A stretch of DNA of 64,000 nt, taken from Terriglobia bacterium. Its GTDB lineage: Bacteria; Acidobacteriota; Terriglobia; 20CM-2-55-15. This document shows positions 6,131 through 61,960 of the stretch, piece after piece; within the stretch, counting starts at the first letter, position 1, and each line of letters begins with the position of its first letter. The stretch covers positions 960,001-1,024,000 of the forward strand of contig CAXWPJ010000009.1 in the NCBI GenBank assembly GCA_963664115.2, written 5' to 3'. Made by a program: the position numbers and the translations under genes. The notes under the pieces are model-generated. The model saw nothing but the letters and a program-made list of their open reading frames with translations. It was not told where the DNA came from and did no database searches.

Positions 6131-6219
6131 TAGTTTCGCCGCGCGGCCCTCGAAACGGTGCTAAGGCCGCTTACGTTTTACTGCTCGATGAAATACCAGC
6201 TATAGGATGGGAGGTTCCG

Positions 6220-8539: not shown

Positions 8540-8615
8540 CCGGCGCTTGCTTCCACGCCATCGCTTGAGAAGCAAAGAGTGTTTCCGTGGACATCCGACT
8601 CGAAAGGGAGAAGGT

Positions 8616-21641: not shown

Positions 21642-22130
21642 ATGAAGCTTGAAAAACGGATCGTGTTCATGGCCGCGCTGGTGCTCGCAGTGGCCATGCC
21701 GGCATTGGCACAGGTCGAGAAGGCCGCGATGCGGACCACGGGAATCTCCTGCGGTGTTTGCGCTGTCGTATCGGAGGTGAATATCCGACGCATCGAGGGT
21801 GTGGACGAAATCACCATCAGCATGTCCAACGAAACGCTGATGATTTCATATGAGCCTGACGCTCTTTTCGAATCCGTGGAGATTCGCAAGGTTCTCGAAT
21901 CGCTTGACGTTGAAATCACCGTGTTCCAGATCAGCGCGCGCGGCCGTGTCGAGGATCAGGGCGAAAAGCGAATTTTTGTCGCCGGCAGGAACCGGTTTGT
22001 CCTGGCAGCTCCCACTGGAAATGCACCCCGGGTTCCATCCGACACGCCGGTCGTGGTTGAAGCCGTCCTCAACGATCAACTCGATCCCATGGAACTGACC
22101 GTCATGGCCTTCAAGACGGTCCCGCAGTAA
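21642..22130 (+). CDS. Secreted heavy-metal-associated (HMA) domain protein
   Basis: Signal peptide; GISCGVC..IEGVDEITISM. Confidence 0.75.
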   Translation: MKLEKRIVFMAALVLAVAMPALAQVEKAAMRTTGISCGVCAVVSEVNIRRIEGVDEITISMSNETLMISYEPDALFESVEIRKVLESLDVEITVFQISARGRVEDQGEKRIFVAGRNRFVLAAPTGNAPRVPSDTPVVVEAVLNDQLDPMELTVMAFKTVPQ

Positions 22131-22387: not shown

Positions 22388-24559
22388 CTACTGGAAGGCC
22401 TCCGGGACGTTGAAGGTAAATATCGCGTTGTGCGTCTTGTCGGACACGATTACGTTCTGATTCCTGACATCGAGCGTGATGCCGCGTACGTCCTTCAAAA
22501 GGAAGTTCGGCCCGCCGATCGTCAACCGGGGCTCCACGGGACCGTCATCGAAGACACTCCACACACCCACGTAATCGTCCAGCCCGAATCGTCCGCCGCC
22601 TCCGACGTTTCCGAAAATCATCCCGCTCTCCGGATTGACGGTCATCCTCGAAGCTCCGGTATCCGTGATGACCCGGAGCGGCGGCGTGTTGCCCGAAGCC
22701 CTGCGGTCGAATATTCGGAGGTCACCCCCGCCTGAGACGATCATGAGATCGTGCACGGGGTCTATTGTTACCCGGCCCTCCCCACGCAAGCCCGTGTCGG
22801 GTCCTTCCAGGATACGGATGGGCGCCACGTCGCCGTCCGCGTCCCGGTCGAAGACCAGCACCCGGCGGACTTGAGGCACATAAATTTCTCCATTTACGGG
22901 ATCGATGGCCACCCGCTGACTGTTCACCAGTTGCGTGCGGGGTCCCATAATCTGTCGGACGGGCGCCGCGTCGCCATCCGCGTCCCCACGGAAAGTGAGA
23001 ATAGAAAAGTTATACCAACCGGGAACGAGAATTTCATCCCGCACCGGGTCGTAGGCCATGTCGTGAATGGTGCGCGTGAAATTTGTATTCTGTCCGGCAA
23101 TGGAGCGCGTCGCGTCTGTACTTCCATCCGCCAGCCTGGCGAATGCCGCAATCTGCGGGTGGCCCACTCAGTTGGAGCCCAGGATTTCTTCCCTCAGGGT
23201 GTCGTACGCGATCGTATGGACATTGGCGAGCATGGGCCCACGGGAGTCGGCCGGACCACTGCGAATCACGCGCTTGGGAGTGGCATCCCCATCCGCCGTG
23301 ATGTCATACACGGTTGCTGAGTGACTGCCCAGATTGGCGACCCACAGCTCGTCGTTTATCAGGTCTACCTTCACCCCGACAGGGTTTTTGATCAAGGAGT
23401 TGGGACCCTGGAGGACTCGAATAGGCGCGGCGTCGCCGTTCGCATCGGCGCTGTAAACCGTCACGGTGTGGCCGGTGTCGTTCGCGACGAAAATCTCGCC
23501 CCGGTCCGGATGCACCGCAATATCGGTCGGCCAGTTCAGCAAGGTGTTGGGACCCTGGATCACTCGTATTGGCGCGACATTACCGGCCCCATCCTTGCGG
23601 TAGACGGTAATGGAGGGCGGTTCGGTCCGTCCCGATCCCGGAATGTTGGCCAAGCGCGAGACGGGCCAGTTGGGTTTTCCAGTGCCACGATTGAAGACGG
23701 CCGGCGTGTCTTCGTCATAATAGCGATCCGCCGCCGTGCCCCAGTTGCTGACATAAAGCAGGCCCGTGTTCGGGTCCAGGGCGATCCCATGGGGATCGGC
23801 CATTCGGGTGGCCGGCCCCTGGATCAACCGCACCGGCGGCTCTTCGTCCTGGGCCGCTTTCCGAAAGACCGAGACCGCATGATCATCCTGGACGGTCATG
23901 AAGATTTCCTGGGTGGCTTCATCGATGGCCATCCGGACGGTCGTATGCGGCGTGGCGAGTTTCCGCTTCGGCGCCACATTGCCCTGGGCATCACGGCCCC
24001 ACACCGTCATCCAGTTCAAGGTGTCATTGTTGATGGCATAGATGTCGCCGCTTCCGGGGTCGACATAGATACCGCAAACGTATTCCAGGAAGGTGTCTTC
24101 TCCCTGAATGACCCGTCTGGGTTCGCTGAACGCTGCGGTTGGCGGTGTATTCGTATTTCGGTCGTAGACGACGATGCTGAAATTGTTCTCGTCCCCAGCG
24201 ACAAGTTCATTCCGGATGGGGTCGATGTCAATGGCTGCAAACACATGACGGGAGTCATGAATCGTACGGATCGGCGGCCTTGTCGCCACCGCCGCCTTGA
24301 CCGCTTCACTCGGCCGGGGGGGCGGGTCCGTAGCTGCCGCCGCTTGCCCGGCGCCTTGCACCAGTGCCATCAGATTCTCTGGCGTGCGGGCCCCAGCCAT
24401 CAGAGTTTCCGGGCCGACTTCGGGCGTTCGTTCCTCCCCAATTAAATTCGTCTGCCCGTTTCCGTCCGGCCCCAGCTGCTCGTGTTGAGGCAGCGCGCCC
24501 ACGGTCACCGACAGACATAAAATCAGTGTGATCACTAAAACCCACTGCCGTGCTTTCAT
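22388..24559 (-). CDS. Putative secreted beta-propeller selenoprotein, copy 1 (723 aa, Sec464 at 23168-23170)
   Basis: ORFs 23168-24574 and 22388-23167 abut in frame across TGA (ILGSN*VGHPQ); GGAGG RBS, signal peptide, ~12 NHL-like repeats; hairpin 3' of the UGA; terminal stop TAG. Confidence 0.85.
23125..23167 (-). promoter_or_regulatory. Putative bacterial SECIS element, copy 1
   Basis: UGA-GUGGGCCACCCGCAGAUUGCGG-CAUUCGCC[AGGCU]GGCGGAUG; 30 nt separate the UGA from the loop. Confidence 0.75.
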
Positions 24560-24612
24560 CTCAGTCCTCCGCAATTCCCGAGGGTTAATTTTGTGGACAC
24601 TTCGTGTTGCTG

Positions 24613-24925: not shown

Positions 24926-27142
24926 CTACTGGAAGGCCTCCGGGACGTGGAAGGTAAATATCGCGTTGTGGGTCTTATCGGACGCGATTACGTTCTGATT
25001 ACTGACATCGACGGCAATGCCACGGACGTCCTTCAGGAGGACGTTCGGACCGCCGATCGTCCACCGGGGCGGAACGGGACCGTCATCGAAGACGCTCCAC
25101 ACACCCACATAGTCTGACAGGCTGTATCGCCCCATGAGGGATCGGACTTCGGGAGGCAGTTCAGGATCTGGCTCGATATCCATAGATCCAGTTGCGAACA
25201 TCATCCCGCTCTCCGGATCGATAGCCCGGACCCCACCGCCACCTTCGATGAACCGGAGCGGCGGGGTGTTTCCCGAAGCTGTGCGATCGAAGATTCGGAT
25301 GCCGCCGCCACCCGAGACGACCAGGAAACCGTGCACGGGGTCGACCGCTACCCGGCCCTCCCCACGCAAGCCCGTGTCGGGTCCCTCCAGGATCCGGATG
25401 GGCGCCACATCGCCGTCCGCGTCCCGGTCGAAGACCAGCACCCGGCGAGGTTGAGGAACGAAAATCTCTCCGTTTACGGGATCGACGGCCACGCGCTGAC
25501 TATTCACCAGTTGCGTGCGGGGTCCCATAATCTGGCGGACGGGCGCCGCATCGCCATCCGCGTCCGCGCTGAATGTGAGAATAGAAAAGTTATACCAACC
25601 CGGTACGACGATTTCATCCCTCACCGGGTCGTAGTCCATGCCGTGAATCGTACGGCTGAAGAGCGTGTTTTGTCCTGCAATGGACCGTGTCGCCTGTGTG
25701 CTTCCATCCGCCAGCCTGGCGAATGCCGCAATCTGCGGGTGGCCCACTCAGTTGGAGCCCAGTATCTCCCCTCTCCGGGAGTCGAACGTGATCGTATGGA
25801 CGTTGGCGAGCATGGGTCCGCGGGAGTCGGCGGGACCGCTGCGAATCACGCGCTTCGGGGTGGCGTCCCCGTTGGCCGTAATGTCGTACACGGTCGCGGA
25901 GTGACTGCCCAGATTCGCAACCCACAGCTCGTTGTTCGTCAGGTCGACCTTCACGCCGACAGGGTGTTGGATCAAGGTGTTGGGACCCTGGAGGACTCGA
26001 ATAGGAGTGGCGTTGCCGTCCGCACCGGCGCTGTAAACCGTCACGGTGTGGCCGGTGTCATTCGCGACGAAGATCTCGCCCCGTTCCGGATGCACCGCTA
26101 TATCGGTCGGCCAGTTCAGCAAGGTGTCGGGACCCTGGATCACTTGCAATGGGGCGACGTTGCCGGTCGCGTCCTTGCGGTACACGGTAATGGAGGGCGG
26201 CTCGTTCCTTCCCGATCCCGGAATGTTGCCTTCGCGCCCGGCCGGCCAGTTGGCTTTTCCATCTCCCTGACCTCTCGTGGTCAACCCAAGGTCATAGTAG
26301 CGGTCCGCCACCGTGCCCCAGTTGGTGACGTAAAGCAGGCCCGTGTTCGAGTCCACGGCGATCCCGTGAGGATCGGCCAATTGGGTGGCCGGCCCCTGGA
26401 TCAGCCGCAGCGGCGACTCGTCGTCCTGAGCCGTTTTCCTGAAGACCGAGACCGCATGGTCATCCTGGACCGTCATGAAGATTTCCTGGGTGGCTTCATC
26501 GATGGCCATCCGGACCGTCGTGTGGGGGGTGGCGAGTTTCCGCTTCGGCTCCGCATTGCCCTGGGCGTCACGGCCCCACACCGTCATCCAATTCAAGGTG
26601 TCATTGTTGATGGCATAGATGTCGCCGCTCCCCGGGTCGACATAGATGCCGCACACGTATTCCAGGAAGGTGCTGTCTCCCTGTATGACCCGTCGGGGTT
26701 CGCTGAACGCCGCGGTCGGAGGTGTATCCGTCATCCGGTCGTAGACGACGATGCTGAAATTATTCTCGTCGCCGGCTATCAGTTCATTCCGGACGGGATC
26801 GATGTCGATGGCGGCAAACACATGCCGGGCGTCATGGATAGTCCGGATCGGAGGTCGTTGCGCCACCGCGGCCCTTTCCGCCTCACTGGGCCGGGGGGGA
26901 GGCCCCGTTGCTGCTCCCGTTTGCCCGGCGCCTTGAACGAGCGCCATCGGATTCTCTGGAGCGCGGGCCGCAGCTATGAGAGTTTCCGGGGCGGCCATCG
27001 GCTCCGCGGAAACGAGGCTGGCCTCCCCTGTCATTGTTGTCTGCCCGTCTCCGCCCGGCTGCAGCTGCTCGTGTTGCGGCAGCGCGGCCACGGCCACCGA
27101 CAGACATAAAACCAGTGAGATCATTAGAACGCACTGTTTCAT
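24926..27142 (-). CDS. Putative secreted beta-propeller selenoprotein, copy 2 (738 aa, Sec465 at 25748-25750)
   Basis: In-frame ILGSN*VGHPQIAAFARLADG; SECIS-like hairpin at 25705-25725 identical to copy 1; terminal TAG. Confidence 0.85.
25705..25747 (-). promoter_or_regulatory. Putative SECIS element, copy 2
   Basis: Identical to copy 1 in sequence and spacing. Confidence 0.75.
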
Positions 27143-33835: not shown

Positions 33836-35965
33836 CTACCGGAAGGCCTCCGGGACGTTGAAGGTAAATATCGCGTTGTGTGTCTTGTCGGAAACCATCA
33901 CGTTCTGATTCCTGACATCGAGGGTGACGCCTCGCGCGTCCTTCAAGAGGACGTTCGGCCCGCCGATCGTCCACCGGGGCTCAGTGGGGCCGTCATCGAA
34001 GACGCTCCACACACCCACATAGTCTTCCTCCAGGAATCGCCCGCCGGGACGGACGACTCCGAAAATCATTCCGTTCTCCGGATTGCTGGTCAGCAACGAA
34101 ACTGCTGCCGCTGCATCACCGGTGATGACCCGGAGCGGAGGCGTGTTGCCCGAAGCCGTGCGATCGAAGATCTGGAGCTTGTCGCCGCCCGAGACGATCA
34201 GGAGATCGTGCACGGGGTCTATCGTCAGCCGGCCCGCAGTTAAATTCGTATCGGGTCCCTCCAGAGTCCGGAGGGGCGCCACATCGCCGTCCGCGTCCCG
34301 GTCGAAGACCAGCACCCGGCGGCCCTGGGGAACGAATATCTCCCCATGGACTGCATCTATGGCAAGAGCCTGCGGATTATGTATTTGCGTGCGGGGTCCC
34401 ATAATCTGGCGGACGGGCGCCGCGTCGCCATCCGCGCCCGCGGCGAAGGTGAGAATGGAAAGGTTATACCAACCGGGTACAAGGATCTCATCCCGCACCG
34501 GGTCGTAGGCCATGTCGTGAATCGTGCGTGTGAAATTAGTATTCTGTCCGGCAATGGACCGCGTCGCCGTTGTGCTCCCATCCGCCAGCCTGGCGAATGC
34601 CGCAATCTGCGGGTGGCCCACTCAGTTGCCGCCGAGGATTTCCTCGCGCCGAGTGTCGTACGTGATCGTGTGGACGTTTGCGAGCATGGGCCCGCGGGAG
34701 TCGGCGGGGCCGCTGCGAATCACGCGCGTTGGCGTAGGATCTCCTTCAGCGGTAATGTCATACACGGTCGCGGAGTGACTGCCCAGATTGGCGACCCACA
34801 GCTCGTCGTTGGTCAGGTCCAGCTTCACCCCGACAGGGTGGTTGATCAACGAGTTTGGACCCTGGAGGACTCGAATAGGAGCGGCGTTGCCGTCCGCATC
34901 GGCGCTGTAAACCGTTACCGTATGGCCGGTGTCATTGGCGACGAAGATCTCGCCCCGTTCCGGATGCACCGCGATATCGGTCGGCCAGTTCAGCAAGGTG
35001 TTAGGTCCCTGGATCACCTGCAAGGGTGCGACATTCCCCTGGGCATCCTTGCGGTACACAGTAATGGAGGGCGGCTCGTTCCGTCCCGAACCCGGAATGT
35101 TGGCTTCGCGCCCGACGGGCCAGTTGGCTTTTCCTTCTCCACGATTCAGGGTGGTCGGCGCGTCTGTGTCATAGTGGCGGTCCGCCACCGTACCCCAATT
35201 GGTGACAAAAATCAGGCCCGCGCTCGAGTCCACGGCGATCCCATGGGGATCGGCCAATCGCGTGGCCGATCCCTGGATCAGCCGCACGGGGGACTCTTCG
35301 TCCTCGGCCGATTTCCGAAAAACTGAGACCGCATGATCGTCCTGGACGGTCATGAAGATTTCCTGGGTCGCTTCATCGATGGACATCCGAACGGTCGTGT
35401 GCGGTGTGGCCAGTTTCCTCTTCGGCGCCACATTCCCTTGAGCGTCACGGCCCCAGACCGTCATCCAATTCAAGGTGTCGTTGTTGATGGCATAGATGTC
35501 GCCGCTTTCGGGGTCGATATAGATGCCGCAAACGTACTCCAGGAAGGTGTTCTCTCCCTGAATCACCCGTCTGGGTTCGCTGAACGCAGCAGTTGGCGGT
35601 GTATTCGTCATCCGGTCGTAGACGACGATGCTGAAATTATTTTCGTCGCCAGCGACAAGTTCACCTCGGATGGGGTCGATGTCAATGGCGGCAAACACAT
35701 GACGGGCGTCATGGATCGTACGGATGGGCGGTCTGTTCGCCACCGCCGCTCTTTCCGCCTCGCTCGGCCGGGGGGGAGGGTCCGTAGCCGCTCCTGCTTG
35801 GGCGCCTTCAACCAGCGCCATCAGACTCCCTGGAGCGCTGGCGGCCATCAGAATTGTCTGCCCGTTTCCGTCCGGCCCCAGCTGCCCGTTTTGAGGCAAC
35901 GCGCCGACAGCCACCGACAGACATAAAACCAGTGAGATCATTAAAATCCACTGCCTTGGTTTCAT
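33836..35965 (-). CDS. Putative secreted beta-propeller selenoprotein, copy 3 (709 aa, Sec448 at 34622-34624)
   Basis: In-frame ILGGN*VGHPQIAAFARLADG; hairpin at 34579-34599; terminal TAG. Confidence 0.85.
34579..34621 (-). promoter_or_regulatory. Putative SECIS element, copy 3
   Basis: Identical to copies 1 and 2. Confidence 0.75.
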
Positions 35966-37462: not shown

Positions 37463-38356
37463 ATGCTAAGCGCAAAGCTTCTTAGTCTTAAGTCCCTGGT
37501 TTTGGTGGGGATTGTTCTCTCGCCAAACCTGTCCGCAATCGGAGCAGTCCAAGTCGACCCGTCCAGCCTCACCTGGGAAAGAGACTACGAAAAAGCTGTT
37601 GAGCGAGCCACAGCGGACGAGAAGCTGATCGTTGCCTACATGTTCACGGATTGGTGTGTGATCTGTAGGAGGATGGACAGCGAAACGTTCGTCGCGCCGC
37701 AATTGATAGAGGAGATGGCGGCGGAATATGTCTGGCTGAAGCTGAATACCGAAACTGAAGAAGACGGCAAACGTTTCCAGGAAGAGTTCGCAATACTAAC
37801 CTATCCCACGATTTTGCTCCTGGACAGTCAGGGCGAGGAAATCGAGCGAGTCAGCCGCTTCGTTCCTGCTGCCGAATTCCGGGAAACTGTTGAGTTTTTC
37901 GTTGAGAGCCCGGATTCTCTTGGGAGCCTGAGAGCAGCAGTCGAGGAGCAGCCCGATTCCGTTTCAGCGCAATTCGCTCTGGCCGAAAAATATCTCAACC
38001 AGAACAACTACCCTAAGGCCGCCGCCCGATATGAGAAGGTGATCGAGCTCGATCCTGAAAACCTTGAAGGCCATACCGATGAGAGCCTCTACAATGTCGC
38101 GCTCTCCCTCGCCAGCCAGGAAAGATTTGAAGAGGCGCTCGCCCAGTTGGATCTTCTTGAGAGTCGCTTTCCGATGAGCGGCAACCTTGGGGAGACGGCC
38201 GTCGTGCTAAGGGTACAGGTTCTCCACTGTTGTGGAAGAATGGATGAGGCGGAGGCCCTTTTACAACAGCAACGCAATGCGAACGCCGAACCGGCTCCTG
38301 TTGGGGAGGTCGAAAACCTGTTCTCCGAAATGGAAGCCGAAATCAGCGGCAATTAG
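37463..38356 (+). CDS. Secreted thioredoxin-fold protein with TPR repeats
   Basis: Signal peptide; FTDWCVICRRM; cis-Pro motif YPTIL; C-terminal TPRs. Confidence 0.85.
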   Translation: MLSAKLLSLKSLVLVGIVLSPNLSAIGAVQVDPSSLTWERDYEKAVERATADEKLIVAYMFTDWCVICRRMDSETFVAPQLIEEMAAEYVWLKLNTETEEDGKRFQEEFAILTYPTILLLDSQGEEIERVSRFVPAAEFRETVEFFVESPDSLGSLRAAVEEQPDSVSAQFALAEKYLNQNNYPKAAARYEKVIELDPENLEGHTDESLYNVALSLASQERFEEALAQLDLLESRFPMSGNLGETAVVLRVQVLHCCGRMDEAEALLQQQRNANAEPAPVGEVENLFSEMEAEISGN

Positions 38357-38527
38357 ACCACCTGCCACGACTATCTTCTGTAACACCATCTGTTGAAAAG
38401 CCCCTCTGTGACAGGGAATAGTAACGCGTCCTTCGGCCGGAATAAAACAGCTTGGATTCAGTTAGTTGTAAGTTTAATATCGACTTGCATTGGCGTGTCT
38501 GTTTGACTTGGAGAAGCAGGCGATCAA

Positions 38528-39151
38528 ATGGCTCGGAAAAAATACGGCAAACAATTCGCTAAGATGTTTGCGGCGATAGCGCTGCTGACCGTGACCGTCA
38601 TCGGGCTCGGTTATGGCTCGCTGCTTCGCGCTATGGATCAAGCTGGGGAAGACTATGGCCGGGGCGATGTGGAGGCTGCGCTGACCCGTTACGAGAGCAT
38701 CGAGGGTCGGCTGCGTTCCCTGGGCGCTCTGCGCATGATACCGGCGAAAGACCGCGGGAATCTTATTCTGAACCAGGCACGCCTGCTCTATGCCCTCGGT
38801 CGCTATGAGGATGCCCAGGTAGCCATGGATCGGGAGACTGAAATCGCCGGTGTCGCCAACAACGATTGCCGATTCCTTCTGTTGAACGGCGACATTGCAT
38901 TCCGGAGAGCCGTCAGGAATTACCGCGAATCGTCGGAGGGGGATGCGGGGTTGCTGGACGACGCCCTGCGCACTGCCGAAACTTATCTGCGTGATTCCCT
39001 GCGCCTCTGCCCGAATGACTGGGACGCCAAATACAATTTTGAGTTCATGCGGCTGAATCGGGCTCGGCCGGCACAGATCCCACTTTTGATGATGGGCGGT
39101 GATAACCAGGATCCGCCGCCGACAACCCTTCCGGCGGAACTGTCACCTTGA
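38528..39151 (+). CDS. TPR-like membrane-anchored protein (MxaK/BatC-like)
   Basis: N-terminal TM; SLRLCPNDWDAKYNFE resembles the MxaK WDAxYNxE motif. Confidence 0.6.
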   Translation: MARKKYGKQFAKMFAAIALLTVTVIGLGYGSLLRAMDQAGEDYGRGDVEAALTRYESIEGRLRSLGALRMIPAKDRGNLILNQARLLYALGRYEDAQVAMDRETEIAGVANNDCRFLLLNGDIAFRRAVRNYRESSEGDAGLLDDALRTAETYLRDSLRLCPNDWDAKYNFEFMRLNRARPAQIPLLMMGGDNQDPPPTTLPAELSP

Positions 39152-39185
39152 TTTCGGCGCCTCGATCACTCAGCGATAATCTCTG

Positions 39186-40202
39186 ATGGAATTTGCAAGA
39201 CAAGAATACTTCTGGCTGTTGCTGCCGGTTCCCTTTGTAGTTCTGCTCTGGGGAATCGGTGTATGGCACCTGCGGCGGATGCGGATCCGATTCGGAAATA
39301 TCGGAAACCTCGCGTCCATCTCAAGAATCTCCTGGTCAGGCAGAGAGTGGTTCCGAGGTCTGCTGTTTGTGGGCGCTCTGGGGCTGATGGTCGTGGCCCT
39401 GGCTGAGCCCAGCGCAGTTGTTCGGGAGTTGCACGCCGTTCCGACACCCACGGATCTGGTGTTCTTGTTGGATACCTCCCCCTCCATGTACGGACGCGAC
39501 ATGGATCCCAACCGGCTGGGTCGTGCTGAACGAATCATTGAGAGATTCCTCTTTCTGAAGCAGCCCGAGGATCGTTATGGCTTGATCTCGTTCAACTGGA
39601 CGAGCGTGGTGTTGTCCTACCTGACCCGCGATCCCCAAAGCATCTTGCTGTACTTCGATTATCTCAATCAGCTGAATGTGCCACAGCCGGGCACCAATGT
39701 GGGCGCCGTGCTGACCAACGCGATGCAGCTGGTTGCCACCGAACGGACCCTCGATCCGGAAAGCGCCCAGAATCGCCGCGTCGTTTTCGTCCTCCTTTCG
39801 GACGGAGACGATACGGCGGACGAGATCGAGGAGCCTCTGGCCGAGGTAGTTCGATCTGGGATTAATATCTATTCCATCGGTCTGGGTACGGCGAACGGCT
39901 CGAACGTGCCGATGGAGATGGCGGGGGGGTTGAACGGCCGGCCGGTAAGGTACTACCAGCGCTACGACGGGGTCCGGCTGATCAGTCAAGCGCAGGCCAG
40001 AACCATGAGAGAGGTCTCCGACCGGACGGGCGGACGGTTCGTGCGCGGTGAGCTGGAAGAGCAGGTGGATCAACTCATGGAGGAAATCCTGGTCGACAGC
40101 CGGCCTGTGTCCGGTTTCGAATCGAGCGCTGTGCGCCGAGACCTCTATGTTTATTTTCTGATGGCCGCTTTGGGATGCCTGTTGGTCGGCGTCTTTTTAT
40201 AA
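39186..40202 (+). CDS. VWA-domain membrane protein (MxaL/BatB-like)
   Basis: TM helices; MIDAS DTSPSM; LLSDGDD. Confidence 0.85.
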   Translation: MEFARQEYFWLLLPVPFVVLLWGIGVWHLRRMRIRFGNIGNLASISRISWSGREWFRGLLFVGALGLMVVALAEPSAVVRELHAVPTPTDLVFLLDTSPSMYGRDMDPNRLGRAERIIERFLFLKQPEDRYGLISFNWTSVVLSYLTRDPQSILLYFDYLNQLNVPQPGTNVGAVLTNAMQLVATERTLDPESAQNRRVVFVLLSDGDDTADEIEEPLAEVVRSGINIYSIGLGTANGSNVPMEMAGGLNGRPVRYYQRYDGVRLISQAQARTMREVSDRTGGRFVRGELEEQVDQLMEEILVDSRPVSGFESSAVRRDLYVYFLMAALGCLLVGVFL

Positions 40203-40222
40203 CCGGCCTGGAGCCCTTGAGG

Positions 40223-41248
40223 ATGGAATCGTTGACCGAACACGTGGAAACGAAAGAGCAGGCATGGGAGGTCATCGCCAGAATCGAAGAGCAGATCCGC
40301 AAGGTGATTATCGGACAGGACGATTTGATCCGGCGCATCCTGATCGGGCTGTTCGGGCGCATTTCCTACTCGTTCAAGAAGGGGCAGGACGAAAAAACAG
40401 GTTCGGGTCACATTTTGTTGGAAGGCGTGCCCGGACTCGCGAAAACGCTGCTTGTCTCGGCCATTGCCAGCACGATTGACGCCAAGTTCCAGCGCATTCA
40501 GTTCACGCCGGATATGCTGCCCGCCGATATTCTTGGAACCAAAATCTTCGATAGCAAGGTCGGCGAATTCCGTACTGAAACAGGTCCGATCTTTGCCAAC
40601 ATTATTCTGGCGGATGAAATCAACCGCGCCCCGCAGAAGACGCAGAGCGCTCTGTTGGAAGCCATGCAGGAGCGCCAGGTCACGATCGGCGAGACTACAT
40701 ACGCGTTGGATGATCCTTTCTGGGTCCTGGCGACTCAGAACCCCGTGGAGCAGGAAGGCGTGTTCTCACTGCCCGAAGCACAGCTGGATCGATTTTGCAT
40801 GATGGTTCGTGTGCATTACCCGTCCCCGGAAAGCGAATACGACATGCTCTCAGCGAGTCTCGAAAAAACGGGCCTGGAATCGGTGACCGGCCCCAAAGCA
40901 GTTCTCGCGATCCGGCAATTAGTCGGTCAGGTGCACGTGGACGAAAAGATTCGCCGGTATATCGTTGCCATCGGCCAGAACACGCGCAGTAACGGCACGA
41001 ACACACTGCCGATTGTGGAGGAGATGGTCATGCACGGCGTATCGCCGCGCTCTTACAATCACCTGCTGGCGATGTGTCGTGCCGTAGCTTTTTTCCGCCG
41101 GCGCGATTACGTTCTCCCTTCGGATGTGAAGTACATTGCGCCCGATGTGCTGCACCACAGAATCGTGCGCACGATCCGGGCAGAAGTCGAAAACGTGGAA
41201 TCCGACGAGATCGTCGCCGAGGTGTTGCGACATACTCCGATTCCTTAA
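40223..41248 (+). CDS. moxR: MoxR-family AAA+ ATPase
   Basis: LEGVPGLAKT; RIQFTPDMLPAD; LADEINRA; ATQNPVEQEG..LPEAQLDRF. Confidence 0.93.
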   Translation: MESLTEHVETKEQAWEVIARIEEQIRKVIIGQDDLIRRILIGLFGRISYSFKKGQDEKTGSGHILLEGVPGLAKTLLVSAIASTIDAKFQRIQFTPDMLPADILGTKIFDSKVGEFRTETGPIFANIILADEINRAPQKTQSALLEAMQERQVTIGETTYALDDPFWVLATQNPVEQEGVFSLPEAQLDRFCMMVRVHYPSPESEYDMLSASLEKTGLESVTGPKAVLAIRQLVGQVHVDEKIRRYIVAIGQNTRSNGTNTLPIVEEMVMHGVSPRSYNHLLAMCRAVAFFRRRDYVLPSDVKYIAPDVLHHRIVRTIRAEVENVESDEIVAEVLRHTPIP

Positions 41249-41256
41249 GAGGTCCT

Positions 41257-42150
41257 ATGGCGCTGGCGCCGGAATTAGTAGAAGAGCTTCGATATGTGGA
41301 AATCAGCGTGGCGCGGCGCATTCGCAGCCTGCGCTTCGGCCAGAATCGCAGCCCATTAAAGGGCTCTGGCTACGAATTCGAGGCCCACAGCAAGTACCAG
41401 GTTGGCGAAGATTTTCGGCGCATCGACTGGAACGTTACAGCGCGCATGCAGGAAGTCTTCATCAAGCGCCATTTTGAGGAACGGGAGGTCTCGGTATTTC
41501 TGGTGGCGGATGTATCCCGCTCAATGCGTTTCTCAACGGCGAAACATTCCAAGAACCTGCGACTGATGCAGGTGGGCGCCACTCTCGGTTTTTCTGCTGT
41601 CAGCGACAGCTGCAACTTTGGCTGGCTGGCGTTCAGTGATCAGGTGGAAGCCTACGAGCCCCCTCGCAAGGGTCGCGCACATGTGTGGCGGGCGATTGAT
41701 AGACTTCACAACCTGAAGCCGAAGCACTCGGGAACCAATTGGGAGCTTGCGTTGCGTTTTCTGCGTAGCCACCTGCGGGGCATGTCCATTGTGTTTCTGC
41801 TCTCGGATTTCATTACAGACCCGGATGCGACCCAGCTGAGGGAACTGCCAGATCTTAAGGTCCTGGCGCAAAAACACGACGTGGTTCCCATCGTGTTCGT
41901 CGATCAACTGGAAAAAACCCTTCCTACAGGCAAAGGGCTGCTCCGCTTTCGTTCGGCCGAGGGCCGCGATGAAATATTGCTCAGCCTTTCCTCGCGTCAG
42001 AGGCGCGCGTTCGACGCCTTGGTGGAGAAACGTAAAGCGGATCTACGGGATCTGTTTTACTCCTTGGGAATGGAGTGCCTGTTTTTGAACGTGGGCGAAG
42101 CGTTCACCGATTCCCTGATGATGCTATTTCAAAGGCGGAAGAAAATATGA
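41257..42150 (+). CDS. DUF58 protein (MxaS-like)
   Basis: GSGYEF..YQVGEDFRRIDWNVTAR; DVSRSM; LLSDF. Confidence 0.9.
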   Translation: MALAPELVEELRYVEISVARRIRSLRFGQNRSPLKGSGYEFEAHSKYQVGEDFRRIDWNVTARMQEVFIKRHFEEREVSVFLVADVSRSMRFSTAKHSKNLRLMQVGATLGFSAVSDSCNFGWLAFSDQVEAYEPPRKGRAHVWRAIDRLHNLKPKHSGTNWELALRFLRSHLRGMSIVFLLSDFITDPDATQLRELPDLKVLAQKHDVVPIVFVDQLEKTLPTGKGLLRFRSAEGRDEILLSLSSRQRRAFDALVEKRKADLRDLFYSLGMECLFLNVGEAFTDSLMMLFQRRKKI

Positions 42151-43115
42151 AGGCGACTTTGCTGTGCATAGCCCTGGGCTTCGCGAACCAGGTGGCCTGG
42201 GCTCAGACAGTGACGACCGATGCCGTTACGGACTCTTCGGATCTGCGGTTCACTGTTCATTTGGATAGAACAGCCGTCTGGCCCGGCGATCAGTTCCACT
42301 ATCTCATCATTGTCGACTACTCCTCTGATTACGAATTCGTTCTCGACAACCTGAGCCAAGAGAGCATTAACATGGACCCCTTTGAGGTCATAGACGTCGG
42401 AACGAATCTGGTTGTTAATAGCACAGGCCGGAGATTGTTCGTGGATCTGACACTGGCCAACTTCGAAACCCTGCAGGGCAGAATGGACATTCCACAGTTC
42501 ACCCTGTTTTATTTCCGTACAGAGAACAATACCGTCGGTGTGGATCAGGCGGCTGCCGAAAGCCTGACGATTCCCGGACCCGCCATCGGAATTCGTAGCA
42601 CGTTGGAGCCGAATCCCGACGACATCCGCGATGCAGTTACGGTGATCGGGTGGGACCGCAGTCGCTGGGTGTTTCCCGCCCTCGGCTGGATTTGTGGTGC
42701 GGTTTTGGTCTTGGGTTCGGGGCGGGAGCTGGTGTTGTTTGTCCAGCGAAGAAAAGCGCGCAAAGGTCCGGATCGCCGCAAAGCGATGAAAGCCGTCCGC
42801 GACCGGTGGACGAGCGGCGTGCCTTCAGAGTTCACGGATCCGGAGACCTGCTCGGCTTTTCTCGACCATTCCTACCAGAACCTGAAGGAGTACGTCGGGC
42901 ATTACCTGGAGACTCCCACCATGGGACTGACCTCTGAGGAGATGCGCGAGGAAATGCGACGTCAGGGTGCAAGCACGGACCTGTCCGAGAAAGTTGCTAA
43001 AGTGCTGGAGGCTTGTGAGACAACCCGCTACGCGCGCAACGGTGTGTCGGAACGCGGGGAAGCGGCGCGTGTCGTGGCCGACGGCATGCGCGAAATTCTG
43101 AGCCCCAAGGGATAG
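42147..43115 (+). CDS. Secreted/TM accessory protein (MxaA/BatD-like)
   Basis: ATGA overlap with the DUF58 stop; Ig-like N-region, TM, C-terminal LTSEEM..LEACETTRYA. Confidence 0.65.
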   Translation: MKATLLCIALGFANQVAWAQTVTTDAVTDSSDLRFTVHLDRTAVWPGDQFHYLIIVDYSSDYEFVLDNLSQESINMDPFEVIDVGTNLVVNSTGRRLFVDLTLANFETLQGRMDIPQFTLFYFRTENNTVGVDQAAAESLTIPGPAIGIRSTLEPNPDDIRDAVTVIGWDRSRWVFPALGWICGAVLVLGSGRELVLFVQRRKARKGPDRRKAMKAVRDRWTSGVPSEFTDPETCSAFLDHSYQNLKEYVGHYLETPTMGLTSEEMREEMRRQGASTDLSEKVAKVLEACETTRYARNGVSERGEAARVVADGMREILSPKG

Positions 43116-43122
43116 TCAACGA

Positions 43123-44055
43123 ATGACGTTTCTGTATCTCCAGTGGCTTTATTTAGCGGTGCCGCTACTGCTGATCGCGTTGGGCCTGCGCTTCTGGAGA
43201 CGGCACTATTGGGGACACTCCCTCGTGTCCCAGATGCGGGAAGAGATCGGTGGTCCGAATCCCATTCTGCGCATGCCTGCCATCCTGGAGGGAGCGGCGG
43301 TGGCATTGCTGCTCACCGCGCTGCTGGGTCCCATCTACCCCTTTGTCGTGAACCGCGTCGAACGCGGTGGGCTGCAGATCCTGATCGTGCTCGACCTCTC
43401 CCAGAGCATGGAAATACCGCTGGGAGACCGGTCGAGAATGGAAGTCATCAAGGCGAGCGCAACCGAATTCATCGACCGCCGACCGGGTGATGCCGTTGGC
43501 CTCGTGGTGTTTTCTCATAACGGATATCTGGTCACACCCGCCACCTTCGATCACGAAAGCCTGCTTTCGTATCTACAGCGGGTCAGCCCGCAGACACTCG
43601 CGCACGAGGGATACACGGCTATCGGCGAGGGTCTTGCCGCCGCCCAGGAGTTTTTTCTCTTCAGCAGAGAACGCGGCGGCCGCGGTAAAGGCGAGGTCAT
43701 TGTCTTGTTCAGCGACGGGGAAAGCAATTGGGGCAGGGACCCCTTGCAGGAAGTGGAAAGAGCGCGCCAGGACGGCGTCCGTATCTACTTTATCGGCGTT
43801 GCACTGCAAGAGGAGGCCGCAGGGCGGATCGCCGCCGCAGTCCCGTCCACGGGCGGAAAGTTTTTCGATGCTCAGATCCCCGGGCACATCGTGGAGGCTC
43901 TCGAAGAGATCAACACGACGGAGCAGGGCCGCTTCTCTACGCTCCAGTTAAGACGGGAACAACCCGCCTACTTTGTTTTTGTCCTCCTGGCGTTCGCGGC
44001 CCTCGCGCTGCGGATGATACTCCATGGTATCCCGCATTTCGTGGAGATCAGTTAA
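43123..44055 (+). CDS. VWA-domain membrane protein (MxaC/BatA-like)
   Basis: DLSQSM; RRPGDAVGLVVFS; TAIGEGL; LFSDGE. Confidence 0.88.
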   Translation: MTFLYLQWLYLAVPLLLIALGLRFWRRHYWGHSLVSQMREEIGGPNPILRMPAILEGAAVALLLTALLGPIYPFVVNRVERGGLQILIVLDLSQSMEIPLGDRSRMEVIKASATEFIDRRPGDAVGLVVFSHNGYLVTPATFDHESLLSYLQRVSPQTLAHEGYTAIGEGLAAAQEFFLFSRERGGRGKGEVIVLFSDGESNWGRDPLQEVERARQDGVRIYFIGVALQEEAAGRIAAAVPSTGGKFFDAQIPGHIVEALEEINTTEQGRFSTLQLRREQPAYFVFVLLAFAALALRMILHGIPHFVEIS

Positions 44056-44061
44056 CCGCTT

Positions 44062-44448
44062 TTAGAACAATTCGGGCACGCGGAACGTCAGAACCGAATT
44101 GAGCCTCTTGTCACTGACGATGATGCTCTGGTTCTTCACGTCCAGCGCCACTCCACGTGGCATCTCGAGAACGCCATCGGGTCCACCGATCGTCCACAAC
44201 GGCGGGCCATCGCTGCTCGCTTCATAGCTCCACACACCCAAACAGGAAACAGGATCCGCCAGAGTCTCCCCGACCGGTCGGTTCGTCGCGAAAATGAGTT
44301 TCTTCGGCGGATAGATCGCGAACGGTCCGCCCAGACTGCGGGGGCCTTGGATCGTCATTATCGGGTCGACCTTGCCATTGGCAAGGCGATCATAAAGCAG
44401 GAAAGTGGTCGCGGTCCTGCCCCCGCCCCCACCTCCGGAGGCTGGGGC
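44062..44448 (-). pseudogene. Orphan C-terminal fragment (about 2.5 repeats) of a fifth beta-propeller paralogue
   Basis: FLLYDRLANGKVDPIMTIQGP..LGVWSY..PPLWTIGGP..PRGVALDVKNQSIIVSDKRLNSVLTFRVPELF; same frame as copy 4 but behind four stops. Confidence 0.8.
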
Positions 44449-44466: not shown

Positions 44467-44520
44467 TCAGAAGATCTCCCGCGGTCAGAAGATTACTTCG
44501 GATCAGAAGATCTCTGGAAC
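44467..44520 (-). repeat. Triplicated 18-bp gene end
   Basis: tcagaagat at 44467, 44485 and 44503; reads VPEIF* SEVIF* PREIF* on the minus strand. Confidence 0.8.
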
Positions 44521-46569
44521 CGAAAACACCAGAATGCCGTTCAAGCGCATATCGGAAATAATCACTTCCTGGTCTTCAGGGTTCAATACCACTCCAAAGG
44601 GTTTCTTCAGCGTTGTCGTCGGTCCCGCCGGGAGCTTCCAAAGCGGCGGAATGTCCCCGTTATCTTCGTAGCTCCATACGCCTAAAAAGGCGCCCTCCGG
44701 TTCCATGTGATCTCGAATCCCGGGCATCGCCGCGACGATCAGCTTCCTCTGTGGATAGACCTGCATCTGGTTGATCCGTACAATCCCCGAATTCGGACCG
44801 CGGATTACGGCCCGCGGCTTTACGTTTCCTTCGTCCGTCCGGTTAAACACCAGGAGCGCGCCCCGCTGGGCGTCTGGTGACCGAGAACTACCGAAGGAGC
44901 TGTTTAAGCCGACTACCAGAATGTCGTTGATCGGATCCACGGAAACCACATTAACGGATTCCAAGCCGGTGTCGGGACCCTCGATGATTCGAAGGGGCGC
45001 AACGTCACCGTTGGCTTCGCGCGGATATACCTTAATACTGTTGCCGCTGTAGGTGAAAATCTCGTCGTGAATGGGGTCCACATCCAAGCGGCTGCCTATC
45101 GTTCCGGTCCGGGGGCCCTGTATGATTCGAATGGGTGCTTCCTGTCCATCGGCGCCTCCGCGGAACGTCAGGATCGCCTCTGCAAACGGGTTGGGCACAA
45201 GAAATTCATCGTTGATTTCATCGTAGCGGATGTCGTGCATGGTTCGCGACAGCTTGCTCGCCTGCCCGAAAACGGCCCGTTCGGGTTGCTGTGCTCCGTC
45301 CGCCAGCCTGGCGAACGCCGCAATTTGCGGATGGGCCACTCAGTTGGGCACCAGAATTTGATCCCGTAAGGTGTCGTATCCGACAGCCCCCGGGTTGCCG
45401 ATGTTGAGCGACAGTCTATCCGCCGGTCCAGATCGAATCGTGCGCGATGGGCTAACATCCCCGTTGGCCGTCACCGGGTACACCGTCACCGAGGCATTTC
45501 CCATGTTCGCAACATAGAGTTCGTCGTTGGTGGGATCGACCGTGATTCCGGGCGGATGTTTGATTCCGGTGTTCGGCCCCTTGATGACGCGGATCGGAGC
45601 CACATCACCCTTGTCTGACATCCGAAAAACCAGGACAGAGTCGTCAGCGTCATTCGCAAGGAACAATTCCTGCCGCTCCTCGTGCAAGGCCAGATGCGAA
45701 GGCCAATTCATCAATGTCTGGGGTCCTTCGATGATCCAGAGAGGCTCCGTATTTTCCGACGCCTCCAGGGGATACACGGTGATTGATGGAGACTCGAACT
45801 TCCCCCATTCCCGTGGGCGCGTACCGGCTGGAGAACCGGGCGGTGGCGCCACGGTCTCCCGACCGTTTCCGTAATTGCTCACGAACACCAGGTTGTTACT
45901 CGCATCGATCGCGATCCCGTGGGGATCTTCCAGCTGCGTGTCGTTCCCACGCAACACGCGAAGCGGTTCCTCTTCACCCTCCGCACCCTTCCGATAAACA
46001 TAGACCGCGTTCTGGTGCTGCACCATCAGGAACATCTCCTGTCTCTCTTCGTGCATGGCGATCCCGAAGGTTCCGTGGGGTGTGGCCAGCACCCGCGTCG
46101 GTGTCGCGTTACCCCGGGCGTCGGGAGAAAAAACAGGCAGCCAGTCCTGCGTGTCGTTGTTGACGACGTAAATCTCGCTGGTGACCGGGTCGATATAGAC
46201 CCCGCACATCATCTCCGCAAACGTGTCCGGCCCGGAAATAACCCGTCTCGGCTCCGTGAAAAGTGCCGACGCGGGAGTGTCGGAGCGACTGTCGAACTCC
46301 AGGATCTGAAACAAGTTCTCATCGGTGACGACGAGCATGTTGTTATCCGGATTCACCGCCACCGCGCTTAATGAAGGGTAGGGATCCTTAATAAACCGAA
46401 GCGGGGCCCGTTCGATCAACACGGTCTCTCGATCTCCTCCGCCCTGCGCGTATGCGACCTCTGAAATCTTCCAACTTCCAACCACGATTGCATCCGCTAG
46501 CGACACGATCAAGCCGAGGCAAATCGTCGATAGCAGCCAGATCCTCCAGTTATGACCACCTTGATTCAT
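44503..46569 (-). CDS. Putative secreted beta-propeller selenoprotein, copy 4, divergent (688 aa, Sec410 at 45340-45342)
   Basis: AAGGAGG RBS, start MNQGG; in-frame ILVPN*VAHPQIAAFARLADG; hairpin with compensatory change at 45297-45317. Confidence 0.85.
45297..45339 (-). promoter_or_regulatory. Putative SECIS element, copy 4
   Basis: CGUUCGCC[AGGCU]GGCGGACG: the A-U pair of copies 1-3 is replaced by G-C. Confidence 0.8.
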
Positions 46570-46773
46570 TACGGAACCTCCTTCACATTCGACTAAATTC
46601 GACCCACGTCTCCCTGCAGGCCGTGATTCATCGCAAGACCGATAATAACGACCAAACAGCGGGGATGCCCGGAAAATCGTTGAAATCATATCGATGTTCT
46701 TTGCTTAAGCCTTTCTTTTGGGACGACGGGGGAAACAATGTCACGAAGCGGCATCCTGCGTCAGAAACTGCTG

Positions 46774-53626: not shown

Positions 53627-54835
53627 ATGAGGCACTCGTTTTCACCCAAACGCTTCGCGACTGCCGGGTTCTGTGCCGTGTTGACCTTGGCTTTTGCCGG
53701 GGCCTGCACCCCCGCAGACTCCGTTCCCGACGAGGCCGCCACTGGGGGGAACCCACCGGCCGCAACCGCTGACACCGGCCCCCGGGAATTCGAGACGGCT
53801 GAACATTCGATCCGCGTTGTCACGGTCGCCGACGGCCTCTCCTATCCCTATGCGATGGCGTTCCTCCCGGACGGCGGCTTGCTCATTACGGAGATGGGCG
53901 GCCAGGTGCGTATGATTCGTGACGGCGCTCTCCTCGCCGAGCCTGTCGGCGTGATCCCCGACGTGCATCACGATGGGGGATCGAAGGGCCTGATGGACGT
54001 CGCCCTGCACCCTGATTTTGCCGAGAACCAACAGATCTACTTCACCTACAACAAGCCCGGCGAACGGGGCACCACCTTAGCTTTGGCGCGTGGGACGTTT
54101 GACGGAAATGAGTTGACCGACCTGACGGATATCTTCCTTGCCGACGCGTGGGCGATGACCGATGCGCGTCAGAATGCCCGCATAGGCTTCGACAACGCCG
54201 GCATGCTCTACATGACGGCCGCCGGGGGCCGGAGCGAGCGAGACCGGGCGCAGGATCTGAGCGATCATTCCGGAAAAACCCTGCGTCTTCGTGACGATGG
54301 GACCGCCGCGCCGGGGAACCCGTTTGAAGGCATCGAGGGGCAGCGACCCGAAATATTTACATACGGCCATAACAATATTCACGGGATCGCGGGTCATCCC
54401 GACACTGGGGAGCTTTGGGTCGTGGAGCATGGCGACAAGGTCAGCGCTCTCGTGGCCGGGCGCAACTACGGATGGCCGTTCGTTCGTTACGGTCCCAGCA
54501 CCAATCCCGCGCCCAATCCCGCTCCGATGGGCGTTCAGTTGACGGCGCCACAAATTGTATGGGACCCGGACGTCCATATTTCCGGCGTGATGTTCTACAC
54601 CGGCGACCGGTTTCCCGAATGGACGGGCGACCTGTTCGTCGGAGGACTCCGCACACAGCAGGTCAATCACGTAGAGCTGACCGACGCGGGCGTGGGGATA
54701 CGGGAATCCCTGTTCACGGAAATCGGCCAGTGGGTGCGCGATTTGAAACAGGGTCCGGACGGATTGATCTACTTCACGAGCTATGCCGACCCGGATGCGC
54801 CGGGGCGTGTGATGCGGATCGAACCCGTCGAATAG
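53627..54835 (+). CDS. PQQ-dependent glucose/sorbosone dehydrogenase family lipoprotein
   Basis: GLSYPYAMAFLPDG; GLMDVALHPDF; PEIFTYGH; GRNYGWP; RDLKQGPDG. Confidence 0.85.
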   Translation: MRHSFSPKRFATAGFCAVLTLAFAGACTPADSVPDEAATGGNPPAATADTGPREFETAEHSIRVVTVADGLSYPYAMAFLPDGGLLITEMGGQVRMIRDGALLAEPVGVIPDVHHDGGSKGLMDVALHPDFAENQQIYFTYNKPGERGTTLALARGTFDGNELTDLTDIFLADAWAMTDARQNARIGFDNAGMLYMTAAGGRSERDRAQDLSDHSGKTLRLRDDGTAAPGNPFEGIEGQRPEIFTYGHNNIHGIAGHPDTGELWVVEHGDKVSALVAGRNYGWPFVRYGPSTNPAPNPAPMGVQLTAPQIVWDPDVHISGVMFYTGDRFPEWTGDLFVGGLRTQQVNHVELTDAGVGIRESLFTEIGQWVRDLKQGPDGLIYFTSYADPDAPGRVMRIEPVE

Positions 54836-60865: not shown

Positions 60866-61960
60866 CTACCGAAGACCGCTTTCAACGGAGTGCCTGAGGT
60901 TCAGATTTTCCCGGCGAGCCTGGGTCAACCATTCTAGGGTCGCATCCGAACATTCGCTCATTACGGTCTGATAATTCTCGACGGCATCGACGTTTACGAA
61001 GGGATGGGGATCGCCCGGATTGCGAAACCTCAGAGCAGTGAGTTTTTCGAGAGTTTTGTCGTAGTTCGTATGACTCGAAAGATGAACGTCTGCCCGGGCT
61101 TCTCTCGCGATGTCCCGGAAACGCCTCGCCGACGCGGCGTAAATGGGTAGTAACTCGAAGGGGTCCGGGTAGTGCCCGAATCCGAAGGCGGTTCCTCCAA
61201 ACAAGGCGCCGACGTGGAGACGGTTTCCATCCTTGAGCGGCCACAGGGTCGAAATCGTTCCAGGTGTGTGACCCGGCGTCACGTAGAGCGTCACCGTGGT
61301 GTCGCCAAGTGTCAGTTCCATACCATCGGTGGCCACCATGTCTTTTCTGGGCTTGAGGTCCTCCGACATCCCTGCGCTCTCCACCAGGTCCCAGTCCCGG
61401 TTGGCCATGATAATCCGGGAGCCGTAATTGTCCTGAAGCTGCCGGGCTCCGAGAAAATGGTCGGAGTGGCCGTGGCCGATGATGACGTACTTGATATCCG
61501 CAGGATCGAGACCGAACTCGCGCAGCCCGTCAACGATCTGCGCTTCAACCATGTACTCGTGGGCCGTGTCGTGCAGAATAATCCCATCGGAGGTCGTCAT
61601 CGCCCACATCGAGTCGTGATTGCTCCCGATGTAGTACAGGTTGTCGAACACCTGCGCAGGCTCCTGGTACCATGCGTCGCGCGGGGGAATTCGGGGCCCG
61701 GGGTCGAACTGTGGGCCCGGAGGATCCGGGTCCATGACCAACTCGCCGTCGGTGATCATCGTACGGCGGGGGGGACGCTCGCTACAGAGCTGATCGAAAA
61801 GCCCGCTAAAATCGTGTCCTGGCTGGTAGGTAGCTGCTCTGGCTATTGCGGCTTCCGCATCGCCAGCAGTTTCGATGTCCTGGGCAATCGCATTGCTTAC
61901 GCCCCCGGCCAGAAGCAAGAAGCCACAGAGAGCCACTGCCAGACGGCGTTTCCCAGTCAT
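60866..61960 (-). CDS. Secreted MBL-fold metallo-hydrolase (subclass B3-like)
   Basis: VFDNLYYIG; HGHSDH; TPGHTPG; LSSH. Confidence 0.85.
   Translation of the reverse strand: MTGKRRLAVALCGFLLLAGGVSNAIAQDIETAGDAEAAIARAATYQPGHDFSGLFDQLCSERPPRRTMITDGELVMDPDPPGPQFDPGPRIPPRDAWYQEPAQVFDNLYYIGSNHDSMWAMTTSDGIILHDTAHEYMVEAQIVDGLREFGLDPADIKYVIIGHGHSDHFLGARQLQDNYGSRIIMANRDWDLVESAGMSEDLKPRKDMVATDGMELTLGDTTVTLYVTPGHTPGTISTLWPLKDGNRLHVGALFGGTAFGFGHYPDPFELLPIYAASARRFRDIAREARADVHLSSHTNYDKTLEKLTALRFRNPGDPHPFVNVDAVENYQTVMSECSDATLEWLTQARRENLNLRHSVESGLR

Follow-up and report, generated by a model that had tools for sequence, protein, structure and literature searches.

A six-gene cassette, K-L-R-S-A-C, occupies positions 38528-44055 of the plus strand in a 64,000-nucleotide stretch of DNA from a Terriglobia bacterium (contig CAXWPJ010000009.1), hereafter the window. 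It encodes a MoxR AAA+ ATPase, three proteins with von Willebrand factor A (VWA)-type domains and two membrane accessories, and it lies among genes of an exported β-propeller family that is likely to contain selenium. Linkage between the cassette and this propeller family is real and one-way: it is seen in both co-occurrence and position, far beyond chance. We judge it somewhat more probable than its converse that the cassette encodes an ATP-driven trans-membrane remodeler of exported propeller enzymes, which most likely loads a divalent metal and whose clients can be swapped. A maturation factor with exchangeable clients is suggested because the client genes nearly always occur with the cassette and the cassette also occurs with alternative propellers.

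Linkage of the cassette to propeller families

Three samples were searched: 61 relatives, 201 evenly drawn Vicinamibacterales (with 5-10 candidates scored in each) and 300 genomes of the phylum; in the first phylum draw only 3 candidates were scored per genome, so that misses are possible. Among the relatives, gene A was found in 12 genomes and the propeller in 16, and all 12 fall within the 16; gene A is present in 0/45 propeller-negative genomes, and the K query concurs with this linkage (9/33). Three relatives of 95-96% completeness (G003, G032 and G033) are without cassette and propeller, yet retain selA, DUF6152 genes and matches to pyrroloquinoline quinone (PQQ) dehydrogenases (8, 17 and 36), a pattern that argues against incompleteness, loss of the selenocysteine (Sec) trait or PQQ-dependent clients as the cause. 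The cassette MoxR occurs in 22 of the Vicinamibacterales and the propeller in 6, every one of which is cassette-positive (6/6, or 5/5 without the centre genome); no propeller was found in the 179 cassette-negative genomes. Five of these six genomes carry a propeller gene at most 7 kb from moxR, and the propeller lies inside 9 of 15 loci of the Vicinamibacterales type, with 0.14 expected, in several positions and orientations. When 34 of 40 related loci were tested genome-wide, the genome was propeller-positive for 10/11 of the Terriglobia-type loci and 14/23 of the others. The cassette MoxR was seen in 3 of the 300 phylum genomes, and the sole propeller-positive genome is one of those three. 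The linkage proposed in a preliminary description of the window is thus borne out by 12/12 relatives, 6/6 Vicinamibacterales and the 9/15 loci.

A second propeller family emerged from clustering of the neighboring genes. A twin-arginine, His-rich LVIVD protein is encoded directly beside the cassette in four loci, with related copies near a fifth. This uncharacterized twin-arginine family (copies at L123:9524-11242, L126:5940-7694, L127:5402-7012 and L135:6140-7849; 414 homologues, invariant His and Cys, 1-6 copies per genome) is present in 12 of the 201 Vicinamibacterales; ten of these are cassette-positive, and in 7/10 the gene lies within about 3.3 kb of moxR. Among cassette genomes, LVIVD and the Sec/Cys propeller never share a genome, for which the chance would be 0.012 if the two were independent. 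The protein is predicted to be a single propeller, tied with seven-bladed ones, with invariant H230, H309, H364 and H441, and shows no profile similarity to the NHL family (0.4%). The longest structural alignment of the LVIVD model, to a Sphingobium phosphotriesterase (355 residues, 18%, Z 21.6), is tied with generic WD40 entries and is a lead only. LVIVD is a candidate metalloenzyme and a candidate second client. The window's own genome (G000) holds distant LVIVD homologues (22-29% identity) at C5:46394-47053 and on C2 and C4, one of them 2.6 kb from a propeller gene.

Several observations weigh against the proposed role in propeller maturation. Linkage is weak in loci of the Terriglobia type, where the propeller lies inside 2/10 against 0.66 expected, and among the matches listed it stands 60-120 kb from the cassette in five relatives. 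Two of the three cassette-type genomes in the phylum draw are without propeller, and 6/22 cassette-positive Vicinamibacterales have neither client family. From the other side, 4/16 propeller-positive relatives are without gene A: G005 (98% complete, 10 propeller copies) lacks A, K, cassette-type MoxR and C by four queries, in G015 (81%) and G024 (one copy) up to four queries failed to find the cassette, and in G034 (73%) two did. LVIVD likewise occurs without the cassette in G543 and G564 (2/12 LVIVD genomes). R, S, C and L are nearer in sequence to Bat proteins, and the counts come from kin that are not independent and from genomes that are mostly metagenome-assembled. Altogether 16/22 cassette-positive Vicinamibacterales are without a Sec/Cys propeller, ten of them with LVIVD, and five propeller-negative cassette genomes remained negative when re-tested at E 1e-8. 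The preliminary description had called the system dedicated to the selenoproteins; with these genomes, and with ten propellers but no cassette in G005, that word has to be given up.

TonB-dependent receptors are the commonest neighbor of the cassette (24/52 loci), as would be expected of a general Bat-type envelope chaperone carried in mobile catabolic islands together with TonB receptors, cupins, HupE/UreJ permeases and propellers, in which case the linkage would reflect shared islands. Four Bat-like subunits, the existence of cassettes without either propeller and the full exception of G005 fit such an origin. We nevertheless regard it as quite unlikely, as control families fail to track the cassette, cassette-negative Vicinamibacterales never hold the propeller, the two propeller families exclude each other among cassette genomes and BatD and BatE are missing. 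DUF6152 was rejected as a tracking partner, being found in 32/61 relatives regardless of the cassette, and so were PQQ dehydrogenases, which, like selA, are kept in cassette-negative sisters. DUF6152 is hugely expanded in the window's genome and its relatives, many of which have 67 or more matches each; the window itself holds two copies (6037-6609 and 8547-9038).

The propeller selenoprotein genes

Four genes of the propeller family lie in the window, all on the minus strand and each with an in-frame TGA: 44503..46689 (TGA at 45340-45342), which would encode a tandem six-bladed NHL protein, 33836..35965 (34622-34624), 24926..27142 (25748-25750) and 22388..24574 (23168-23170). The first two are the likely clients. 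The TGA splits 13 genes in the genome, always at one position, and all 13 copies have TGA there (13/13). Cys occupies this position in 34/34 full-length homologues among the 120 listed; the remaining 86 are short entries, 83 of which terminate one residue before it. A hairpin resembling a selenocysteine insertion sequence (SECIS) lies 23-43 nt past the TGA of the first gene (45297..45317, minus strand). Its Arg codon is AGG in 36/38 TGA copies, versus 6/160 Arg codons in the cassette genes, and two synonymous sites show a full compensatory change from C-G to U-A (28 versus 10 rows, with kin not independent); the one Cys copy has no hairpin. The possibility that TGA is a true stop between two genes was rejected. 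The genome also encodes tRNA-Sec and selA (523 bits). The flanking propeller genes therefore behave as selenoprotein genes, and their products likely contain selenium. The preliminary description had placed selenoproteins on both flanks of the cassette: the TGA/Cys pair, the hairpin, tRNA-Sec and selA uphold their nature, and the position needs amending, for the left propeller gene is not adjacent and a DUF169 gene stands between.

The end of the cassette is abutted by the 3' remnant of a further propeller gene (44062..44358, minus strand, 98 aa; remnant span to 44500), which is 44-49% identical to C-terminal parts of intact copies. In G002 two intact copies stand behind the cassette, so that propeller copies turn over at this site. 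In G198 a lone propeller gene, away from the cassette, is frameshifted and still has TGA and hairpin. A gene for an exported HMA-like protein with a CGVC motif (21642-22130) adjoins the propeller pair of the window, and weak homologues lie beside propeller genes in L075 and L076.

The propeller model has 12 blades (predicted local distance difference test score, pLDDT, 88.8; predicted template modeling score, pTM, 0.87), and residues 86-420 match six-bladed NHL propellers such as TRIM2 (Z 28.7, root-mean-square deviation 2.3, 250 residues aligned) and PAL (Z 25.4). On both grounds we read the modeled protein as a tandem of six-bladed propellers in which Sec lies in a loop of the seventh blade. 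A Foldseek search with the whole model gave generic multi-propeller matches only, and a PDB sequence search weak NHL/LRP matches only; neither named a function. D163, N344, U/C448, R480 and H483 are invariant in 29 diverse propeller genes and H241 in 28/29, and the surrounding positions vary, which suggests a core that is probably enzyme-like and metal-binding, with diversified pockets. The family numbers 13 to about 30 copies per genome. Cys146 (window positions 34622-35965) is present in many Sec-form copies, 10/13 in this genome, and Cys-form homologues mostly have Ser; it is a possible partner of Sec.

The cassette could also be imagined to serve this family as a chaperone, in folding, domain docking, release or quality control, and not as a metal loader. 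The same co-occurrence and linkage would follow; a two-domain propeller with invariant residues in both domains would suit such a helper, and MoxR/VWA systems are described as generally being remodelers (PMC9976466). The sets of invariant His/Asp/Asn(/Cys) in both client families are, however, typical of metal sites, and the closest characterized six-part system acts in Ca2+ loading, its mutants being rescued by incubation with Ca2+ at high pH (PMC12276312). We consider a pure chaperone unlikely.

Genes and predicted topology of the cassette

K (38528..39151) is a membrane-anchored TPR-like subunit that is closest to MxaK, carries WDAKYNFE at residue 165 and has no Pfam or NCBIfam match. L (39186..40202) is a VWA protein with three transmembrane (TM) segments at the MxaL/BatB position, with a Pfam VWA match and a metal-ion-dependent adhesion site, or MIDAS, of the form DTSPSM...LSDGD. 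R (40223..41248) is the MoxR AAA+ ATPase (AAA_3, E 1.7e-64; GVPGLAKT, LADEINR, QLDRF), followed by its soluble DUF58/VWA partner S (41257..42150; DUF58, E 8.7e-51; DVSRSM...LSDF). A (42147..43115), at the MxaA position, combines an exported N-domain, one TM and a C-domain; it has no Pfam match, and its signal peptide was recognized by inspection. C (43123..44055) is the second three-TM VWA protein, at the MxaC/BatA position (Pfam VWA; DLSQSM...FSDGE). With likely starts, the gaps along these six plus-strand genes are 34, 20, 8, -4 and 7 nt, which confirms the tight coupling noted in the preliminary description, and the Walker A/B and Arg-finger motifs and the three MIDAS starts are intact.

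The order K-L-R-S-A-C is complete in 28 of 40 related loci found with the K profile, and the other 12 hold a partial run in the same order, so that the arrangement is not due to chance. It is retained even at only 25-30% K identity; an alternative order, K-L-R-A-C-S, also exists among related loci. In L112 and L113 (G198) seven genes inserted between R and S split the cassette. The thioredoxin(CxxC)-TPR gene that does precede the cassette (37463..38356, plus strand; Pfam matches; WCVIC), and that had been described with it, is a local neighbor outside the conserved unit: its end lies 171 nt from K, and it was rejected as a core part with matches in only 6/71 loci, five of them the window's closest relatives and one in divergent orientation. 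A promoter/terminator scan returned 4 and 13 sites where 4.1 and 9.9 would be expected; the predicted site before K (38393-38422) is not above chance. Metatranscriptome contigs (4 of 14 listed runs) are short low-depth pieces on genes and intergenic DNA alike, and are uninformative for expression or co-transcription.

Hydropathy places TMs of L (338 aa, VWA and TMs only) at 9-27, 55-73 and 320-338; L and C (310 aa, VWA and TMs only) share two N-terminal helices that flank a basic loop, and a further helix at the C-terminus. K has a single N-terminal TM (10-28) behind a basic tip, and A one TM (174-192) followed by basic residues; S has none, and in R just one segment, Walker A, reaches the threshold. 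The positive-inside rule would orient L and C with their VWA domains, K with its TPR and A with its N-domain toward the periplasm, and A is likely a trans-membrane coupler. The measured topology of the BatA-type protein BB0173 agrees with a periplasmic VWA domain (PMC5700661). The MIDAS of L is invariant across 37 alignment rows; in C, D93, S95, S97, T170 and D202 are invariant in 26 rows, as are the loops around the MIDAS. A complex prediction for the one pair tried, the VWA domain of C and a natural Cys-form propeller of the same locus (L076) with Mg, gave no answer (score 0.01, mark 0.32) and speaks neither for nor against contact.

Among the neighbors, HupE/UreJ-type permease, heavy-metal-binding-domain and cupin genes recur near the cassette in L055, L064, L066, L071 and L054, with DUF4198 in L066, and could possibly form a metal supply module. 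In 8 loci (L055, L059, L070-L072, L076, L132 and L133) C and the propeller gene are separated by an Abhydrolase_10 gene of 550-600 aa. Farther along the window, a metallo-β-lactamase-fold gene (60866-61960) matches best the subclass B3 CAR family (144 bits against a cut-off of 500).

Affiliation with Mxa and Bat systems

The references were three annotated mxa clusters, from Paracoccus methylovorus, Methylobacterium nodulans and Methylocystis iwaonis, and six Bat-type operons from Parabacteroides, Leptospira, Cetobacterium and proteobacteria. In searches with hidden Markov models (HMMs) of the acidobacterial proteins, R, S and C score better with Bat than with Mxa (best Bat/best Mxa, 382/138, 266/73 and 165/72 bits), and so does L (BatB 163, best Mxa 40, MxaL 21). 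K behaves in the opposite manner (MxaK 38/36/32 versus BatC at most 18), and profile-profile comparison with hhalign concurs (MxaK 97.9%, E 3.9e-13, versus BatC 96.0%, E 4.3e-9). The two methods agree for S, C, L and K and disagree for A, which HMM search brings to BatD/batX (46/33 versus MxaA 11) and hhalign to MxaA (91.8% over 237 columns, versus 57.8% for the Bat equivalent). The best NCBIfam matches are Leptospira BatA and BatB models, far under cut-off (C to BatA 105 versus 380; BatB 54 versus 350).

The cassette MoxRs form a single acidobacterial clade of their own (support 100), separate from Bat and from MxaR, whose branch is very long (5-7 changes per column); both trees were quick searches, the second with 14 of 42 cassette rows kept and 7 new ones. 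Forcing Mxa and cassette MoxRs into one clade was rejected at the borderline (approximately unbiased (AU) test, p=0.047), with the very long Mxa branch to be kept in mind. No BatD or BatE was found in the window and none recurs after C in related loci, although BatD is present in all Bat references. With R, S, C and L Bat-like, K MxaK-like, a separate MoxR clade and BatD/E missing, the cassette is by sequence a member of neither family; it has the Mxa parts list in a circular permutation of the mxa order. The label Mxa-like in the preliminary description thus survives for the architecture, for K and for the K-L-RSAC permutation, and fails for the sequences of the ATPase and VWA proteins. That description would have been refuted by a grouping with generic Bat operons and no linkage to the propellers; what we find is a distinct MoxR clade and linkage.

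As the preliminary description stated, there is no mxaF or xoxF in the window: none lies near the cassette, and no methanol/alcohol-type PQQ dehydrogenase is present among the 50 window open reading frames (ORFs) scanned. The cassette is not clustered with mxaF-J-G-I at the locus, mxaJ, mxaG and mxaI not having been searched for elsewhere in the genome. A displaced mxa-type cassette could in principle serve PQQ dehydrogenases at other loci (alcohol type or GSDH) by loading Ca2+ into them: TIGR03075 matches number 28 in the genome, one being above cut-off, and there are ten GSDH-type matches, one of them 9.6 kb from the cassette (53627-54835), and a Burkholderia plasmid carries mxaRSACKL without evident mxaF. 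We hold this to be highly improbable, since 8-36 such enzymes occur in cassette-negative sisters and a single one, below cut-off, in cassette-positive G040. By tblastn, the best PQQ enzyme of the genome, which ranks alcohol dehydrogenases above XoxF/MxaF, is found at 0/71 cassette loci and GSDH at 1/71, and the borderline AU result points the same way. The plasmid, of Burkholderia sp. THE68 (L089:9813-15142; also in Caballeronia), has a true mxaR-S-A-C-K-L order, and its MoxR shares 48-58% identity with the MxaR of methylotrophs; the plus-strand ORFs listed for the central 20 kb include no evident mxaF/J/G/I, which makes this an orphan Mxa cassette.

Proposed mechanism and significance

We propose that the MoxR ATPase, the three MIDAS-bearing VWA proteins and the two membrane accessories form one inner-membrane machine, which would use cytoplasmic ATP to remodel an exported propeller, here most likely the Sec/Cys double-NHL protein, so that metal can enter its active site. 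Based on hydropathy, the positive-inside rule and the BB0173 topology, R and S would act in the cytoplasm and A would span the membrane and couple them outward. The client would be exported unfolded by a Sec-type signal, and its buried site (D163, H241, N344, U/C448, R480 and H483) would then require loading with a divalent ion, perhaps Ca, Zn or Mn. In the manner of NorD on NorB, a periplasmic MIDAS of C or L may hold an acidic patch of the client, and K may act as adaptor. Metal insertion and direct client contact are modeled on precedent. Each of MxaR, S, A, C, K and L is described as required for Ca2+ loading of the propeller MxaF, for which a MoxR/VWA complex has been proposed and whose loading mechanism still needs elucidation (PMC12276312); in NorQD, acidic residues of the client are held by the MIDAS, and ATP hydrolysis serves to open the client for metal (PMC9976466).

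A broader proposal, which we put forward tentatively and with rather less than even confidence, is that Mxa, Bat and K-L-R-S-A-C are three branches of trans-membrane MoxR-VWA machines, the last being a general insertase of metal into closed propeller sites that has been swapped among at least three unrelated clients (MxaF, the Sec/Cys double-NHL propeller and the His-rich LVIVD protein). The selenoprotein would then count as an exported selenium-metal enzyme missing from the catalogues, matured by an ATP-driven machine of its own, and Bat operons would probably perform this task for other clients.

The widespread Bat operons have no known client. A cassette that joins Bat-like ATPase and VWA proteins to an Mxa-like layout and K, and that has two nameable, unrelated propeller families beside it, makes a direct test possible and suggests a role for the Bat type. 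The maturation factors that a large selenoprotein family has been lacking are also likely supplied by the cassette; gene callers split the genes of this family at UGA. A 2026 inventory of 119 selenoprotein families makes no mention in its main text of propeller, NHL, YncE, lactonase or Acidobacter (PMC13188914). Within openly available main texts, including a term search of PMC12013277, we found no published description of the cassette-propeller link, the LVIVD-MoxR link or the propeller selenoprotein.

Comparison with known systems

The mxaRSACKL system offers the closest layout, with six parts of the same kinds (MoxR, DUF58/VWA, membrane accessory, VWA, TPR and VWA), an order of which KL-RSAC is a circular permutation, the second VWA gene immediately preceded by a TPR gene, and no BatD. 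K has its best match in MxaK and A, by profile-profile comparison though not by HMM search, in MxaA, and the likely client is again an exported β-propeller. Unlike it, the cassette has no mxaF/J/G/I beside it, its C and L are far from MxaC and MxaL, and it has non-PQQ propellers as putative clients, one of them with Sec. Bat operons (moxR-DUF58-X-batA-batB-batC-batD(-batE)) share the R-S-X-VWA run, the sequences of R, S, C and L and the three-TM VWA topology of BB0173. They differ in that the cassette has its TPR gene before the second VWA gene, both upstream of moxR, has an MxaK-like K and lacks BatD and BatE. A candidate client can be named for the cassette, whereas for L. biflexa no function of Bat is reported (PMC3557215).

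NorQ/NorD, which insert non-heme Fe into cNOR, also pair a MoxR ATPase with a MIDAS-bearing VWA partner and serve as our mechanistic template (PMC9976466). That system has two soluble cytoplasmic parts; the cassette has six, its VWA domains are predicted to be periplasmic and its likely client would be a soluble exported protein. The MoxR-vWA β-propeller ternary conflict systems likewise bring MoxR, VWA and propeller together, and R has a weak bpMoxR Pfam match (E 4.6e-10). As described, however, they have VWA fused to the propeller and to a variable third component (PMC7159879), whereas the VWA proteins of the cassette carry three TMs and no fusion, and the propeller is encoded separately as a conserved, enzyme-like protein; R also scores far better to AAA_3 than to bpMoxR. 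Lastly, the propeller resembles bacterial selenoproteins that have Cys homologues in its TGA/Cys pair, its hairpin past the UGA and the presence of selA and tRNA-Sec in the genome, and stands apart from catalogued selenoproteins as an exported tandem six-bladed NHL protein in such high copy number.

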